The notes beneath the pieces are model-generated. The model was not told where the DNA came from. It saw only the letters and a program-made list of their open reading frames with translations, and did no database searches. Shown in pieces: positions 55,522-61,679 of a DNA stretch of 64,000 nucleotides. This stretch comes from Clostridium polyendosporum (GTDB lineage Bacteria; Bacillota; Clostridia; Clostridiales; Clostridiaceae): assembly GCF_018332455.1 (NCBI RefSeq), contig NZ_BOPZ01000012.1:31443-95442 (forward strand), written 5' to 3'. Made by a program: the position numbers and the translations under genes. How positions within the stretch are numbered: the stretch's first letter is position 1; each line of letters starts with the position of its first letter.

Positions 55522-55545
55522 TGGCGCCGGAGCGCCACTTTTGTT
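55522..55545. terminator. Bidirectional terminator (tggcgccggagcgcca)
   Basis: A GC-rich hairpin flanked by an A run and a T run. It lies just 3' of the ABC operon on the minus strand. Confidence 0.65.
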
Positions 55546-57331
55546 AAGCTCCTTCATTTAAGAAGCGGTATTGTGCCATATAGAGATTATGGTAAATCTC
55601 TTTCTTTTCTATGAGCTCATTATGAGTTCCGTACTCTTTGATTTTGCCACCATCAACAACCATAATTTTGTCACAGTCTCGTATAGTAGAAAGTCTGTGA
55701 GCAATTACGAAGGCGGTTCTTCCCGAAAGAAGTTTTTCAATACCTTTTTCAACTAATTTTTCTGTATAGGTATCGATATTTGAGGTTGCTTCATCAAGAA
55801 TCAATACCCTTGGATTTGCAAGTAGTGCTCTAGCAAAGGAAATAAGTTGTCTTTGTCCTAAGGAAAGTCTTGAACCTCTCTCGTTAACTTCTGTGTCATA
55901 ACCTTTTTCCATTTTTATTATAAAGTCGTGAGCATTAACAGCTTTGGCGGCTGCAATAACTTCTTCATCAGTAGCATCAAGCTTCCCATATCTTATATTT
56001 TCTTTTATAGTTGTAGAGAAGAGGAAGGTATCTTGAAGCATAATTCCCATCTGACTTCTTAAAGATTCAATGTCAACATTTTTTATATTTTTCCCATCAA
56101 TTAAAATTTCTCCAGAAGTAGGATCATAGAACCTACTTAGTAGTGAAACTATTGTAGTTTTACCAGATCCGGTGGCACCAACTAAAGCTATTGTTTCACC
56201 AGAATTCACTTTAAAACTTATATTATTAAGCACTGGTGAACTTTTATCGTAGGAGAAGGTCACATTTTTAAATTCTACAACTCCTTTTATTTTACCCATT
56301 TTAGGAGCATTCTCAGAACTTATGATATCTGGACTAATATCTAAGATGTCAAAGATCCTGTCAGCGGCAGAGAAGTTTGTTATAAGAGTATTGTAGAAGT
56401 TTGACAGATTCATGATTGGTCTCCAGAACATTCCTATATACATTGAGAAAGCAATTAAAGTACCTACAGAAATTTCACCCGATATTACAAGAGAATACCC
56501 AGTATAGAAAACAACAACTATACCAATACCCCAGGAGAGCTCAACTAAAGGCCAAAAGAAATCATTCAGTCTCACTGCTTTAGTAAAGGCATCCATAAGC
56601 GCACTTACCATGTTCCTAAAACATAATAAGGTATCGTATTCCTTTCCAAAGGCCTGAACAACCTTAATTCCTGAGAAGTCTTCATGTGTATAAGCATTTA
56701 GATTTGAACGTTTCTTTCTATATATTTCCCATCTTTTTCTTGATTGAGTTTCGATAAGAAACATTGAGACTGTTAAGAAGGGAAGTATTATTATCGATGC
56801 TAAAGCCAATTTAATGTTTAAGGTAAACATCATCAGTGAAACACAAATCAAGCTTAAAAGCTCAGGAATAAGTGTCTGAATGCTCTGATTGAACATATTT
56901 TGAAGAGCATTTACATCACCTATAACTCTTGCTAGTATCTTTCCAACAGGTCTATTGTCAAAGAATGAAAATGACAGTCTTTGAATGTGGGTATATAATT
57001 GATGTCTTATGTTTACCAAAATATTATTAGTGATAAAGGACATCATAATCAATCTAACCTTGGATGCAATCATTGATAGAAGGTTTAGCACTAATAAAAG
57101 GGTGCCAATATACATTAAACCTCGGACATTACTTTCTTTTACATGAGTGTCGATTGCAATCTTAAGTAGATAAGGATTTAGTATTCCACATACCATTACA
57201 AATAGCATAAGCAGTATTACCAAAAAGGTTTTAATTCTATAAGGAGCCAAATAGTTTAAAAGTCTTAAGGTTATTTCAATTTTATTTCTGCTCATTTGAT
57301 ATTCATCTTGCCTTACTGTATTTTTAGCCAT
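55544..57331 (-). CDS. ABC transporter permease/ATP-binding protein, half-transporter (BmrD/YheH-like partner of a heterodimeric multidrug exporter)
   Basis: An N-terminal 6-TM domain plus an ABC ATPase (GATGSGKTT, LSGGQRQ, ILDEATS). The start overlaps the stop of the upstream half-transporter. Confidence 0.9.
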   Translation of the reverse strand: MAKNTVRQDEYQMSRNKIEITLRLLNYLAPYRIKTFLVILLMLFVMVCGILNPYLLKIAIDTHVKESNVRGLMYIGTLLLVLNLLSMIASKVRLIMMSFITNNILVNIRHQLYTHIQRLSFSFFDNRPVGKILARVIGDVNALQNMFNQSIQTLIPELLSLICVSLMMFTLNIKLALASIIILPFLTVSMFLIETQSRKRWEIYRKKRSNLNAYTHEDFSGIKVVQAFGKEYDTLLCFRNMVSALMDAFTKAVRLNDFFWPLVELSWGIGIVVVFYTGYSLVISGEISVGTLIAFSMYIGMFWRPIMNLSNFYNTLITNFSAADRIFDILDISPDIISSENAPKMGKIKGVVEFKNVTFSYDKSSPVLNNISFKVNSGETIALVGATGSGKTTIVSLLSRFYDPTSGEILIDGKNIKNVDIESLRSQMGIMLQDTFLFSTTIKENIRYGKLDATDEEVIAAAKAVNAHDFIIKMEKGYDTEVNERGSRLSLGQRQLISFARALLANPRVLILDEATSNIDTYTEKLVEKGIEKLLSGRTAFVIAHRLSTIRDCDKIMVVDGGKIKEYGTHNELIEKKEIYHNLYMAQYRFLNEGA

Positions 57332-59067
57332 TATACCACCTCACTTTCTATTTCGTTGAAGTCCTTGAACTGTTCGCAGTAAATATCATAATATTTCCCT
57401 TTAAGCTGAAGTAGTTCATTATGGTTTCCGCATTCTTTTATTTCTCCATCTTCTATGAACAGAATGATATCGGCATTTTTTACGGCAGAAATTCTATGAG
57501 CTATTATGAAAGTCGTATTTTTAATTTTTCTTTCAGACAGGTTTTTTAGTAATGTATATTCTGTTTCCATATCCAGTGCAGAAGTAGCGTCATCAAGTAC
57601 TAATATAGGAGCTTTTCTCAACAATGCTCTAGCAATGGAAATTCTTTGTTTTTGACCACCGGATAATCCTATACCTCTCTCACCTATTTCTGTATTAAAG
57701 CCTTTTTCAAGGGAAGTAATAAAGTTTAGACAACAAGCTGTCTTACATATACTTTTAATATCCTCTATAGAAGCGTTTTTATTACTAAATTTTATATTAT
57801 TTTCTATACTATCAGAGAAAAGGAATGTATCTTGAGGGACAACGGACATACTGCTTCTCAATTTATTAAGGTTAATGTCTTTAACATTTATTCCATCTAC
57901 TAAAACTTCACCGTCAGATACATCATAATATCTTCCAATTAGATAGAGCAGAGAAGATTTACCAGAACCGGTAGTTCCCATTATAGCAACAGTACTTCCA
58001 GCAGGAATACTTAGATTAACATTCTTTAATATAGTTTCATCATTGTATTTAAAGGAAACATTCTTAAATTCAATTTCTCCACTTATTTCAGAAAGAGAAT
58101 TTGTATGTTCTTTGTTTTTAATTTCTGGTTCTCTATCGATGATAGTAAAGATTTTCTTTGCGGAGGCTTGGTTTTGAGCTAGCATGTTAGTTAGCCAACC
58201 TAACATTCTCATTGGCCATATGAGGTTCCATATATAACCACTAAATGCCACTAACGTACCTAAACTCATTTCATTTTTAATAACTAAAATACCACCAAAT
58301 ATAATCATGATTACTAATGAAATATTTGTTAAAAATTCCATAGGAGGGAAGTAATTTCCTATAATTTTAGCCTGTGTCATGGTTAAATCATAATAGGATC
58401 TATTCATTCTTAAAAACTTTAATACTTCATGTTTTTCTCTAGCAAAGGCCTTTACTAATCTAACACCAGCTATATTTTCCTGAGCAGCAGTATTAATTTC
58501 TGCAGTTTGGTCACTGATCTTGCCACAACAATCGGAGAACTGTTTTTCCAATTTTATTGCCATATATCCTATAGGTACCATTATGATGATACAAGCTAGG
58601 GCAAGTTTCCAACTTAAATAGAACAATATTATGGTGCTAATAACCAAGTAAACTATATTTTCTACAAAAAGCCTTAATCCAAAAGCTATTGTTTGCCATA
58701 TATTCTCTATATCTTCGCCTATCCTTGACATCAATTCACCGGTATTCATATTATCAAAGTACTTAAACTCAAGCTCTTGGATATGCTCAAAAAGTTCATT
58801 TTTGATATCTTCATGAACTTTTGCAGATAGGCTGTCAAAAAGATATTCTTTTGCATATCCGAAAATAGCTTTGATCAATGTAATTGCAAGTATCGATCCG
58901 AGTAGTGGTACAAGTAGAGAAGCTTGCTTATCCATGATGGCCTTATCAACTATTAACTTTTGTAAATAAGGTGTTATATTATCTACAGCTATGATAAAAA
59001 GCATTACTGATGATGCAATAAGCAGTATAGCTTTATGTCTTAGCAGATAGCTAAAAATTCTTTTCAT
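57331..59067 (-). CDS. ABC transporter permease/ATP-binding protein, half-transporter (BmrC/YheI-like)
   Basis: An N-terminal TMD plus NBD (GTTGSGKSS, LSGGQKQR, VLDDATS). It is the first gene of a two-gene operon. Confidence 0.9.
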   Translation of the reverse strand: MKRIFSYLLRHKAILLIASSVMLFIIAVDNITPYLQKLIVDKAIMDKQASLLVPLLGSILAITLIKAIFGYAKEYLFDSLSAKVHEDIKNELFEHIQELEFKYFDNMNTGELMSRIGEDIENIWQTIAFGLRLFVENIVYLVISTIILFYLSWKLALACIIIMVPIGYMAIKLEKQFSDCCGKISDQTAEINTAAQENIAGVRLVKAFAREKHEVLKFLRMNRSYYDLTMTQAKIIGNYFPPMEFLTNISLVIMIIFGGILVIKNEMSLGTLVAFSGYIWNLIWPMRMLGWLTNMLAQNQASAKKIFTIIDREPEIKNKEHTNSLSEISGEIEFKNVSFKYNDETILKNVNLSIPAGSTVAIMGTTGSGKSSLLYLIGRYYDVSDGEVLVDGINVKDINLNKLRSSMSVVPQDTFLFSDSIENNIKFSNKNASIEDIKSICKTACCLNFITSLEKGFNTEIGERGIGLSGGQKQRISIARALLRKAPILVLDDATSALDMETEYTLLKNLSERKIKNTTFIIAHRISAVKNADIILFIEDGEIKECGNHNELLQLKGKYYDIYCEQFKDFNEIESEVV

Positions 59068-59109
59068 AATTTTCCCTCCCGTATTAATTAAGTAGCGCCC
59101 TATATATGC

Positions 59110-59143
59110 AAAAAAAGGTCACAGGAATACCCATGACCTTTTT
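59110..59143 (-). promoter_or_regulatory. Leader terminator hairpin (attenuator segments 3:4) upstream of the ABC exporter operon
   Basis: On the minus strand the sequence is aaggtca…tgaccttt followed by a T7 run, 40-75 nt upstream of the ABC start codon. Confidence 0.55.
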
Positions 59144-59153
59144 GGTAATATAA

Positions 59154-59181
59154 AAGGTCATGAGCAATAGCCCATGACCTT
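59154..59181 (-). promoter_or_regulatory. Leader hairpin (segments 1:2). Its 3' arm catgacctt can instead pair with segment 3 aaggtcatg, forming an antiterminator
   Basis: A 9-bp perfect stem aaggtcatg/catgacctt. The arm sequence is repeated verbatim in the downstream terminator, which allows mutually exclusive structures. Confidence 0.55.
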
Positions 59182-59209
59182 AATTACCGATTAAAATGTA
59201 TAAGAAAGA

Positions 59210-59317
59210 TTAATTATCAGTAATCGTCCACGTAGAGATAGGGCTATTGTTAATATATATTAAAGAATTAGTCTTTATAACGATGCTAAATCCAAGTTGA
59301 TATCTTACTGTTAACAT
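59210..59317 (-). CDS. Candidate 35-aa leader peptide (MLTVRYQLGFSIVIKTNSLIYINNSPISTWTITDN) upstream of the ABC exporter operon
   Basis: A very strong SD aaaggaggt lies 8 nt upstream of the ATG. The ORF ends about 29 nt before the first leader hairpin. It is embedded in the larger 63-aa ORF of the track. Confidence 0.4.
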   Translation of the reverse strand: MLTVRYQLGFSIVIKTNSLIYINNSPISTWTITDN

Positions 59318-59549
59318 ATTTCCTACCTCCTTTTTGTATAATTTATTTAATCGTATAAATTGATTAATTCTATTATATACATATTTTGAAATTAATGTCA
59401 AATAAACACAAAAAAATTTAAGTTAAAGAAATTGTAGTTTATAGTTTAGAAATAGATTTATATATTGGTTATTTTTTAACGAAATATTCTTTTACTATTA
59501 TGCACTGTTTTGATATGTTATTACTATTTATAAAGTAAGGAGTAAAGAT

Positions 59550-60116
59550 ATGAAGAAGAGGATGTTTATGTTTTTAGGAATAATAATAGCACTAGTTGTA
59601 GTTCTTGAAATGTTTATATTTTCCCTTCCCATGATTTCCAGACCAAAGAAAGCAGATGTAATAATAATATTAGGGTGCAAACTTTCCAAAGGGAGTCCAG
59701 GGTTATTTTTGCAGAAGCGAATAGAAAAGGGAATGGAACTTTTTAAGCAAGGATATGGACGTTATATCATAGTTTCTGGAGGAAAAGAAAAAGGAGAAAA
59801 GATTTCAGAAGCTGAGAGCATGTATAGGGTTTTAATTAAATATGGGATAAATGAAGATAGTATAATTTTGGAGGATAAGTCTCAAAATACTTCCGCCAAT
59901 ATCAAAAATTGCACTGAAATAATGAGGGATAGACAATTTAACAGTTCTATAATAGTTTCTAATTTTTTTCACTTAAGAAGAGTATGGATACTAGCTAAGA
60001 GAAATAATATTGATGCTACTTATGATGGGATATTTATTTGGAGATACTTCTGGAAAGAGATACAAGGGTCTATAAGAGAAATACCAGCTATAATTAAGGA
60101 TTCTATATATAGATAA
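59550..60116 (+). CDS. DUF218/YdcF (SanA/ElyC)-family membrane-anchored protein
   Basis: An N-terminal TM. The DUF218 blocks …ADVIIILGCKL… and …YIIVSGGKE… are present. Confidence 0.75.
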   Translation: MKKRMFMFLGIIIALVVVLEMFIFSLPMISRPKKADVIIILGCKLSKGSPGLFLQKRIEKGMELFKQGYGRYIIVSGGKEKGEKISEAESMYRVLIKYGINEDSIILEDKSQNTSANIKNCTEIMRDRQFNSSIIVSNFFHLRRVWILAKRNNIDATYDGIFIWRYFWKEIQGSIREIPAIIKDSIYR

Positions 60117-60129
60117 GTCATAAATAAAG

Positions 60130-60258
60130 TTGGGCAGGTATCCAGCCTATTAAAGATACACAACTTTAATCAGTAAACAATTCATAAAAATAAGAATTTA
60201 GGCATCAGCTCTATTAACTTTGAACCAGATTTTACTTCATGAAATGATAGCAAATAAA
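60130..60258. repeat. Dispersed repeat copy R15 (B + C-fragment + B + A)
   Basis: The pattern ttgggcaggtatccagcct…agatacacaacttt…aattcataaaaa…taggcatcagctct…ccagattttacttcatgaaatgatagcaaat. Confidence 0.7.
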
Positions 60259-60261
60259 AAA

Positions 60262-60300
60262 CCATGTGGTTTTATAAACCTCATGGTTTTTTGGGTTTTT
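60262..60300 (-). terminator. Probable terminator after murC (two overlapping hairpins aaaccatgaggttt / aaaccacatggtttttt)
   Basis: Read on the minus strand. The second stem is followed by a T6 run. Confidence 0.55.
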
Positions 60301-60302
60301 TA

Positions 60303-61679
60303 TTATGAATTTAAATACATTTCTCCCACATTAACAACGTCTCCTGCACCTACGGTTAGAAGTAAGTCCTCTGCTGAGGCTTTTTCTTTTACATAATTTA
60401 ATGCTTCCTCATGAGAGTGAACATTTGTGCACTTAACGCCTTTCGCTCTTAAAGCATCACCAAGTTGCTGTGAACTTACCGTACCTGTATCCTTTTCTCT
60501 TGCTGCATATATATCCATAAGTATAACTTCATCAGCATCGAAAAAGGCTTCTGTAAATTCATTAAATAAGGTTTTAGTTCTTGTGTAGGTATGGGGCTGG
60601 AATACGCAGTATATAGTTTTATGAGATACTTTTTGAGCAGTACTCAAAGTTGCTTTTATTTCAACTGGATGGTGAGCATAGTCATCTATAACTGTAACAC
60701 CATTCTTTTTACCCTTATATTCAAACCTCTTATGAGCGCCTTTACATTGTAATAATCCTTCTATAATTGCATTTGATGATATATTAAATATGAGTCCAAC
60801 ACAAATTGTACAAAGGGCATTTAGAATATTATGCTGACCTGGAACACTCAGATCAACTGAGAATAGTTTGTCTTCTCCTTTATAAGCATCAAAGGATGCG
60901 CATCCTCTTTCGTTAAAGCTAATGTTTCTAGCAGTTACATCGCCATTTTCAAATCCATAGCTTAAGATATTACACTTTGACTTTGCAATTATATCTTGTA
61001 CTCTTGGATCGTCGGCATATCCTACAAGATATCCATCTTTAGGAATTAAGTTAGAGAACTTCTCAAAAGTTTCTTGGATATGATTTATATCTCTATAGTA
61101 ATCTAAATGATCCGCGTCTATATTTAATATTATTCCAATGTATGGATAGAACTTTAAAAAGGATTCTTTATATTCACAAGCTTCAGTAATAAAATAGTCA
61201 CTGTTACCTATTCTAAAGTTTCCGTTTATTATATCTAGTTCTCCGCCTACAAGTATTGTAGGATCAATATCTCCAGTCAAAGTTACATGGGAGATCATTG
61301 ATGTACAAGTGGTTTTTCCATGAGTGCCTGCTACAGCTACGCCATATTTATGACCTTGCATTATCTTACCTAAAAATTCTGCTCTGTCCATAAGTGGTAT
61401 ATTTTCATTTTTTGCCTTAACAAGTTCAGGATTGTCTTGAGGGATAGCAGCAGTATAGACAACCAGGTTTACATCCTTTAAATTTTCACTACTATGGCCT
61501 ATGTATACCTCTGCACCCTTTTCTTCAAGTCTTTTAGTAAGCTCTGATGCCTTTGCATCTGACCCTGAAACCTTGTAGCCTTTATTTAGTAGTACAGCAG
61601 CAAGGCCGCTCATGCTTATTCCACCTATTCCAATAAAATGTACCTTTTTATGCTTATCTTTTATAAAATGAAATGACAA
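60303..61679 (-). CDS. murC: UDP-N-acetylmuramate–L-alanine ligase
   Basis: It reads …[15 protein letters not shown]… and …[11 protein letters not shown]…. A probable TTG start at 61679 lies 7 nt after aaaggag. An ATG at 61706 has no RBS. Confidence 0.9.

Follow-up and report, generated by a model that had tools for sequence, protein, structure and literature searches.

A leader with a Shine-Dalgarno-pairing hub and two tandem terminators as a putative translation-sensing attenuator of a heterodimeric ABC exporter operon in Clostridium polyendosporum

How does Clostridium polyendosporum control the transcription of two adjacent genes for ATP-binding cassette (ABC) half-transporters that follow a long structured leader? 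The genes lie on the minus strand of a stretch of 64,000 nucleotides (nt) from contig NZ_BOPZ01000012.1 (positions 31,443 to 95,442; assembly GCF_018332455.1), which we call the window, and an initial annotation of its sequence had proposed that a short leader open reading frame (ORF) and a set of alternative hairpins form an attenuator in front of a heterodimeric ABC exporter. Conservation and covariation support this class of mechanism, and the leader is probably a cis-acting, translation-sensing transcription attenuator of the ABC operon, which would be turned on when a ribosome is held at the start region of the leader ORF. The leader consists of six consecutive segments: the Shine-Dalgarno (SD) region, a hub within the ORF that we designated X and, in 5' to 3' order, the two arms of hairpin 1 (the first together with the apex) and the two arms of hairpin 2. 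As judged from sequence, folding and covariation, adjacent segments are able to pair, namely the SD with the second part of the hub (SD:X2), the first part of the hub with the apex (X1:apex), the two arms of hairpin 1, the second of these with the first arm of hairpin 2 (2:3), and the two arms of hairpin 2. The initial interpretation appears right in kind and incomplete in mechanism, with unusually good comparative support; the novelty would reside in the SD-pairing hub and the two-terminator relay, within the known frame of ribosome-mediated attenuation.

Reading of the minus strand from 59700 to 58950 confirmed the leader ORF, its SD and both hairpins at the minus-strand positions first assigned to them (Table 1). 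The perfect promoter, TTGACA-18-TATAAT (59401-59372), was absent from the initial annotation; in a consensus scan of positions 58800-60400 it is the only perfect match, and such a strong promoter would yield a leader RNA of about 300 nt. The SD (AAAGGAGGT, 59333-59325, minus strand) is separated by 7 nt from the ATG and can form 9 base pairs (bp) with the 3' end of the 16S rRNA (-13.6 kcal/mol). Its UAGG extension does not match the 16S rRNA 3' end and pairs with X2 instead. The ORF is translated as MLTVRYQLGFSIVIKTNSLIYINNSPISTWTITDN, and its stop codon (59212-59210) is followed, after 28 nt, by hairpin 1 (59181). Folding of the leader gave a z-score of -4.5 relative to shuffled sequences; likewise, the 9-mer AAGGTCATG occurs four times in the window, with 0.33 copies expected, and three of the four are in the leader, while the pattern formed by the SD followed by CCTATCTC occurs once in the window, with none expected. 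The fourth copy of the 9-mer (43163) is inside a coding sequence, without a hairpin, and was discarded as a chance match. The arrangement of the leader exceeds chance, as backed by the shuffling z-score, the excess of the 9-mer and its recurrence in 71 distinct leaders, described below.

The hairpins turned out to be longer than first described. Hairpin 1 was correctly located at 59181-59154, with a stem of 12 bp instead of 9 bp, and its apex (GGGCUAUUG, 59173-59165) runs from the upper part of the 5' arm through the loop to the first base of the 3' arm. It had been taken for a plain hairpin; however, a terminator-consensus scan also rates it as terminator-like. Because U-rich tails follow both hairpins, these look like two tandem intrinsic terminators. 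The reading of hairpin 2 and its U7 tract as a factor-independent terminator held, with a 14-bp stem and the ABC start codon (59067) 42 nt beyond the U7. Likewise, the proposed 2:3 antiterminator exists, is conserved and covaries, although it extends over 15 bp rather than 9 bp; it excludes hairpin 2 by sharing one strand of the terminator, and folding assigned nearly equal energies to hairpin 1, hairpin 2 and the 2:3 helix. All four arms (59181-59112, minus strand) carry a single palindromic core, which gives the 5' arm of hairpin 1 a further possible partner in the 3' arm of hairpin 2 (1:4 helix); a fold constrained to contain the 2:3 helix gains this 1:4 helix and reaches -65.4 kcal/mol, versus -68.2 kcal/mol for the terminating (OFF) fold, less than 3 kcal/mol apart. 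We also considered whether the spacer after the leader stop (59199-59212) sequesters the ribosome-binding site of the ABC gene (GGGAGGG, 59068-59086). This pairing was seen only in the minimum free energy (MFE) structure of the window leader and was not conserved in the family (mean of -6.8 kcal/mol within loci versus -7.1 kcal/mol across loci; 4152 of 5000 permutations), and was rejected.

Table 1. Positions of the leader elements and of the exporter genes in the window
Feature	Coordinates	Strand	Description
Sigma-70 promoter	59372..59401	-	-35 TTGACA, 18-nt spacer, -10 TATAAT; 12/12 consensus matches
Leader translation-initiation region	59322..59333	-	SD proper AAAGGAGGU; X2-pairing strand GGAGGUAGG at 59330-59322
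Leader ORF	59210..59317	-	35 codons plus stop; ATG at 59317, TAA at 59212-59210
Hub X	59234..59249	-	16 nt within the ORF; X1 CAAUAGCCC at 59249-59241, X2 CCUAUCUCU at 59242-59234
Hairpin 1 (putative terminator 1)	59154..59181	-	12 bp, 4-nt loop UAUU, tail UUUUAUAUU, -19.7 kcal/mol
Antiterminator 2:3	59128..59166	-	3' arm of hairpin 1 (59166-59152) with 5' arm of hairpin 2 (59142-59128); 15 bp, -18.7 kcal/mol
Hairpin 2 (putative terminator 2)	59110..59143	-	Stem 59143-59112, 14 bp, -18.3 kcal/mol; U7 ending at 59110
ABC half-transporter A	57331..59067	-	578 amino acids; Walker B LVLDD without catalytic Glu; canonical signature LSGGQ
ABC half-transporter B	55544..57331	-	595 amino acids; canonical Walker B LILDE; degenerate signature LSLGQ

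A scan of species-representative genomes with the first half-transporter (subunit A) retrieved 80 loci with 58-78% protein identity, mostly from species of Clostridium, plus the Gottfriedia/Bacillus group; the nearest relatives are from Clostridium folliculivorans and C. zeae (78% identity). The same parts appear in the same order in 71 distinct leaders upstream of the ABC orthologues from Clostridium, Gottfriedia and Bacillus. The SD element is GGAGGTAGG in 63 of these 71 leaders and GGAGATAGG in six, the ORF spans 25-55 codons, and a motif (A/G)(G/A)(C/U)CCUAUCUC is conserved close to the end of the ORF. Hairpin 1 has the consensus GGYCRUGGG...CCAUGRCC, and hairpin 2 a similar one followed by a U-run; in 53 of 54 leaders both hairpins show at least six U within the 8 nt past the stem. 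Spacers between these blocks are variable (10-100 nt). The ORF extends through X2 without a stop in 69 of the 71 leaders, compared with one and four for the other two frames, and the two non-open cases look like failures in picking the start codon; additionally, the stop codon is always located at most 24 nt after X2 (median, 18 nt). The leader ORF is evidently under selection as an ORF. Hairpin 1, in turn, begins 35-105 nt after X2.

Comparison of the upstream regions of orthologous exporters, as suggested in the initial annotation, recovered a small ORF, both hairpins and the 2:3 helix as conserved and covarying elements; the lack of such conservation, named there as a refuting outcome, was thus not observed. 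Double changes were found in 8 of 11 pairs of hairpin 1 and in 6 of 10 pairs of hairpin 2. The 2:3 helix is more stable within loci (-13.3 kcal/mol) than with strands taken from different loci (-11.3 kcal/mol; none of 10,000 permutations was as good), that is, beyond the complementarity given by the shared consensus, and shows double changes at 6 of its 10 core pairs; in several loci, complementary spacers lengthen it to about 20 bp and it is locally the most stable hairpin. A scan of metagenomes for the pattern of SD followed by X2 gave 92 hits. The ones in which a proper start codon and an ORF are present are AT-rich, and in all 24 of these whose downstream DNA is long enough the same ABC orthologue follows; about two thirds of the 92 matches were set aside as chance occurrences in GC-rich coding DNA, such as actinobacterial ORFs. 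Among the 80 genomes and the 92 metagenome matches, the leader family was seen only upstream of orthologues of the heterodimeric exporter of the window. We found no Rfam match at gathering score in five loci of the family, nor in the bmrB locus of B. subtilis; with curated Rfam models and E values up to 10, the best matches of the window leader scored 14-20 bits, versus gathering scores of 35-376 bits.

The connection between the ORF and the hairpins appears to be provided by hub X, which was overlooked in the initial annotation. X1 is complementary over 9 bp to the apex of hairpin 1, and X2 is complementary, also over 9 bp, to the SD strand GGAGGUAGG; the two halves of the hub have in common a CC dinucleotide (59242-59241) that is invariant across the family. 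The SD:X2 helix is present in the MFE structure of the window leader, was independently predicted by RNAalifold on the natural sequences, and is paired in 95% of cells across 33 diverse leaders. The X1:apex helix had mean energies of -11.5 kcal/mol within loci and -7.7 kcal/mol across loci, and none of 10,000 permutations was as good. In a MAFFT alignment of the extracted blocks, changes on both sides were found at 6 of its 9 pairs, with 91% of cells paired, and in an alignment of the natural contiguous sequences 96% of cells were paired; as a control, sliding the partners by 1-3 columns reduced pairing to 25-52% of cells in both alignments. A wider pairing of the start-codon region with X1 was found in leaders L020 and L044, and was discarded as not general (1308 of 10,000 permutations). 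Without the shared CC, the energy of X1:apex drops from -13.4 to -6.8 kcal/mol and that of SD:X2 from -11.6 to -5.7 kcal/mol. Because both helices compete for the CC, which holds about half of the stability of either one, we read it as a toggle between SD:X2 and X1:apex.

Several features of the hub point to a constraint at the level of RNA and not of the peptide. Of the 71 listed X2 variants, 69 have a purine followed by two pyrimidines as their middle triplet (a codon for Ile, Thr, Val or Ala), which is just what pairs with the UGG of the SD. Additionally, X2 is read in a different frame by 7 of the 71 distinct leaders, with products such as GLSL (L013, L016) and ALSL (L067, L070) instead of SPIS. 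Together with the near-invariant UAGG, which does not match 16S rRNA, the triplet pattern and the frame shifts argue for such an RNA-level constraint. The leader peptide had been described as having no obvious homologue; an N/S-P-I-S motif nevertheless recurs in most leaders, where it reflects this same constraint. The least credible of the alternatives that we considered is that the unit is an independent small-protein gene with tandem terminators and no switch, the ABC genes relying on constitutive read-through or on a promoter that escaped notice. A stand-alone gene would indeed have the strong promoter, the strong SD and the pair of terminators of this unit; however, the peptide is not conserved beyond the RNA-constrained stretch, whose frame differs in seven leaders, the covarying X1:apex and 2:3 helices are not needed by a plain pair of terminators, no promoter-like site was found between hairpin 2 and the ABC start codon, and the ABC orthologue always accompanies the unit. 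Only slightly less improbable is a riboswitch-like element, or one binding a protein or a tRNA, in which a trans-acting factor stabilizes X1:apex or hairpin 1 and the ORF is incidental. Such an element would fit with the covariation of a long-range helix and with the conserved sequence of the apex; conversely, the ORF is kept in 69 of 71 leaders behind a near-perfect 9-nt SD with correct spacing, there is no match to Rfam families, and the sequence outside of the helices shows little conservation, with hardly any room left for a ligand pocket.

We simulated the position of the ribosome by folding the window leader up to segment 3 with its footprint placed on the start region or on X. Without a mask, the RNA formed SD:X2 and hairpin 1; masking the start region gave X1:apex and the antiterminator, and masking X gave hairpin 1. 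Extending this to 54 leaders, the start-region mask increased the number with X1:apex from 10 to 34 and that with the antiterminator from 26 to 36, whereas with the X mask hairpin 1 formed in 37 leaders, the antiterminator in 17, and X1:apex in none. In the switch that we propose, the SD of naked RNA would hold X2, both hairpins would fold and transcription would end. During normal translation, the ribosome would sweep through X and leave at most 24 nt later, X would be unable to hold the emerging apex, and transcription would likewise terminate. A ribosome held or queued at the start codon, for instance by drug-slowed elongation, would instead occupy the SD and free X; the freed X1 (9 bp, including the CC) would then capture the apex before the 3' arm of hairpin 1 exists, and this arm, once released, would pair with the 5' arm of hairpin 2, in such a way that both terminators would be bypassed and the polymerase would enter the ABC genes. 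The stricter proposition that only a loaded, non-progressing ribosome turns the pump on, with termination both without translation and with normal translation, is one that we put forward tentatively and at somewhat less than even confidence. If true, it would represent a distinct design of start-site-stalling sensor, suited to drugs that arrest ribosomes at initiation. The analogy with bmrCD (PMC4191407) makes drugs acting on the ribosome the obvious candidate inducers.

The same helices could be wired differently. An unlikely, but the most serious, alternative is that X1:apex and the antiterminator form by default, that translation of the leader masks X and causes termination, and that slowing of translation induces; SD:X2 would then make a coaxial pseudoknot with X1:apex and serve solely to shut off or limit translation of the leader, without a role as anti-antiterminator. 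X is always inside the ORF with the stop soon after, masking of X leads to hairpin 1 in 37 of 54 leaders and never to X1:apex, and the order SD, X1, X2 and apex, in which the two parts of X are not separated by a linker, is, as inferred from its geometry, a feasible H-type pseudoknot; this is also the logic that Reilman et al. (PMC4191407) proposed for bmrB. Nevertheless, it does not agree well with an invariant CC that both helices contest and that provides about half of the stability of each, or with the nested folding of naked RNA, where SD:X2 excludes X1:apex, and it leaves the strict conservation of the non-16S UAGG and of X2 with only an auxiliary role. This wiring and the start-region switch that we favor diverge in a single prediction, the effect of breaking SD:X2.

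The initial annotation had envisaged the classic four-segment geometry (1:2, 2:3 and 3:4), with the ribosome on the leader masking the 5' arm of hairpin 1 (segment 1) and freeing segment 2 for the 2:3 helix. The three helices do exist and are nearly isoenergetic, and a fold with segment 1 masked, suggested then as a check, formed the 2:3 antiterminator in silico. A ribosome at a stop codon covers only about 12-15 nt downstream. The stop codon of the leader is 28 nt before hairpin 1, and in the family hairpin 1 begins 35-105 nt after X2, so the ribosome cannot mask hairpin 1 directly; in agreement with this distance, masking of the stop codon left hairpin 1 of the window leader unaffected. As the covarying X1:apex helix would also remain unexplained, we consider this geometry very improbable, and the link with translation was better sought in hub X.

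Other observations count against the start-region switch. First, changes in SD:X2 are one-sided, with no double changes, which is conservation and not covariation. Second, in Clostridium hominis and C. disporicum (L030 and L042) the place of hairpin 1 is taken by an unrelated hairpin rich in GC (GAGAUCGCG...CGCGAUUUU), the complementarity of X1 amounts to only -1.5 and -3.8 kcal/mol and the 2:3 helix is weak, while the SD, the ORF, X2 and hairpin 2 are retained. Third, as soon as the transcript includes hairpin 2, the OFF fold is the minimum whichever mask is applied; the ON state must consequently be kinetic, as in other attenuators. Additionally, SD:X2 and X1:apex are mutually pseudoknotted and their coexistence is beyond what the folding tools used can score, X1 does not touch the lower 8 bp of hairpin 1, which makes it uncertain that terminator 1 is completely blocked, and the coupling of transcription and translation is loose in Bacillota, which renders arguments based on timing uncertain. 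On the other side, the in silico analyses found the structural features of a leader-peptide attenuator: a conserved ORF with its SD, a terminator before the gene, a covarying antiterminator, and an ORF that overlaps a switch segment.

A few leaders depart from the general plan. In L066 (metagenome-assembled genome of Clostridium sp. AA16) and L069 (Clostridium hydrogeniformans), a second AAAAAGGAGGTAGG with an ATG follows the first CCTATCTTC around 500-390 nt upstream of the ABC start; these look like two tandem leader modules, followed by several GGTCATGG-type hairpins. The leader peptides from L052, L055, L060, L068, L072, L073 and L076 end in Pro-stop (...TP*, ...LP* or ...FP*), and those from the Gottfriedia group (L011, L014, L015 and others) end in ...QDGPR*. 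A C-terminal Pro slows termination, and with these Pro-stop ends a pause of the ribosome shortly after X may contribute to the timing. The cassettes from Bacillaceae (L007-L039, from Gottfriedia and Bacillus) show 66-70% identity to the protein from the window, about as much as many species of Clostridium; these equal identities suggest that the ABC cassette and its leader moved horizontally between Clostridium and Bacillaceae.

The gene products match the domains ABC_membrane and ABC_tran, as fused transmembrane and nucleotide-binding domains, and the start codon of subunit B overlaps the stop codon of subunit A (ATAATG). Since subunit A lacks the Walker B Glu and subunit B has a non-canonical signature, the pump can be assigned to the heterodimeric ABC exporters with one degenerate ATP site (TM287/288, BmrCD, LmrCD, EfrCD and PatAB type). 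Among bacterial half-transporters in PDB, subunit B matched best to TM288 from Thermotoga (432 bits), with BmrD/YheH at 343 bits; subunit A gave nearly equal scores to Sav1866, MsbA and TM287/288, and the BmrC chain was not among its 60 listed PDB matches. The designation of the pump as BmrCD-type was therefore right as to the transporter class and wrong if taken as orthology, with 34% identity between subunit A and BmrC and higher scores of TM287/288 for both subunits; the two pumps are of the same kind, and are paralogues. No gene for a transcription factor or other regulator flanks the operon in the window; upstream, its neighbors encode a DUF218 protein and a Mur ligase, and downstream they encode a NUDIX protein and an SPFH protein.

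The closest parallel is nevertheless the bmrBCD operon of Bacillus subtilis, whose locus (L082) we retrieved with a BmrC sequence verified against the solved structure of BmrC (YheI). In bmrB, a terminator and an antiterminator lie within the leader coding sequence (nt 60-162; PMC4191407), and antiterminator and anti-antiterminator structures were described, with the translating ribosome as the proposed sensor (Reilman et al., 2014; PMC4191407). Both systems have a short translated leader ORF before a heterodimeric ABC exporter with a degenerate ATP site, and an intrinsic terminator with alternative structures for which the ribosome is the proposed sensor; also, in our fold of the bmrB leader the start region is likewise paired with a segment internal to the ORF. 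The differences are equally clear: bmrB has a single terminator (AAAAAAGGCAUGGAGC...GCUUCAUGCCUUUUUU) inside the annotated 53-codon ORF, whereas the window leader has two in tandem, downstream of the stop codon, and hub X, SD:X2 and X1:apex are features of the window family that are not described for bmrB. Further, bmrB is additionally under the control of AbrB and Rae1 (Rae1/bmrX layer; PMC10351889). The bmrB leader of B. subtilis has no GGAGGUAGG or CCUAUCUC motif, and six bmrC loci from five species of Bacillaceae (L081-L082 and L175-L178) gave no match to the pattern of SD followed by X2. The window leader has no alignable similarity or shared motif with that of bmrB, as the initial annotation had already noted, and the bmrB leader diverges fast even among Bacillus species. 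In the bmrB locus itself (L082:1190-1275), an ATG at position 1204, with AAGGAGGG 6 nt upstream, opens a 23-codon ORF (MPRNLRVYQTVSYWRGKPFVLFS) that is out of frame with the annotated bmrB start, GTG-1220, and ends before the bmrB terminator. In the MFE structure of this locus, the start region GGGUUUGCUAUGCCAA pairs with the ORF-internal UUGGCGCGGCAAACC, with the stop codon 13 nt further on, resembling the SD:X2 design; the published knockout of the bmrB start codon also lost alternative starts and ribosome-binding sites, and does not separate the two ORFs. The window leader would act like the bmrB system, yet its sequence does not place it in the bmrB family.

In the attenuators of the trp, his and leu operons, a leader ORF precedes mutually exclusive hairpins ending in an intrinsic terminator, and the position of the ribosome decides among them. 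The window leader shares with them the leader ORF, the chain of alternative hairpins and the terminator, but lacks runs of regulatory codons and has six segments instead of four, with two terminators; moreover, its own SD is the first partner of the switch and the ribosome never reaches the terminator-proximal hairpins. Sensing of a stalled ribosome in a short upstream ORF (uORF) and refolding of the RNA, which there turn on a resistance gene, are also likenesses of the proposed switch to the drug-inducible leaders of ermC and cat-86, which are translational, and to those of vmlR, lmo0919, msrD and other ARE-ABCF genes, which are transcriptional (PMC9226507, PMC10314930). Most uORFs of this group are very short, or else stalling takes place at defined peptide motifs, and their targets are methylases, acetyltransferases and ABCF factors, unlike the membrane exporter of the window; neither an SD-pairing hub nor a two-terminator relay is reported for this group. 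Finally, in Streptococcus pneumoniae a terminator hairpin in the 5' leader of patAB limits a heterodimeric ABC exporter, and its weakening leads to overexpression (PMC4319486). This is a single hairpin, with no leader ORF or ribosome sensing reported (PMC4319486), and we liken it to the window leader by its description only.

The window leader most likely switches the pump on upon ribosome stalling. To our knowledge, bmrBCD of B. subtilis is the one case in which a membrane multidrug-type ABC exporter has been shown to be under ribosome-mediated attenuation; here, an unrelated and more elaborate leader apparently does the same job in about 70 species of Clostridium, Gottfriedia and Bacillus. 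The leaders constitute an RNA family that is new, well defined and missing from Rfam, and that lends itself to modeling and annotation. They may also exemplify a general design in which the SD of a leader is the first partner of an antitermination relay across two terminators. If ribosome-targeting antibiotics prove to be the inducers, the ABC operons would be candidate inducible efflux determinants in clostridia from gut and soil.

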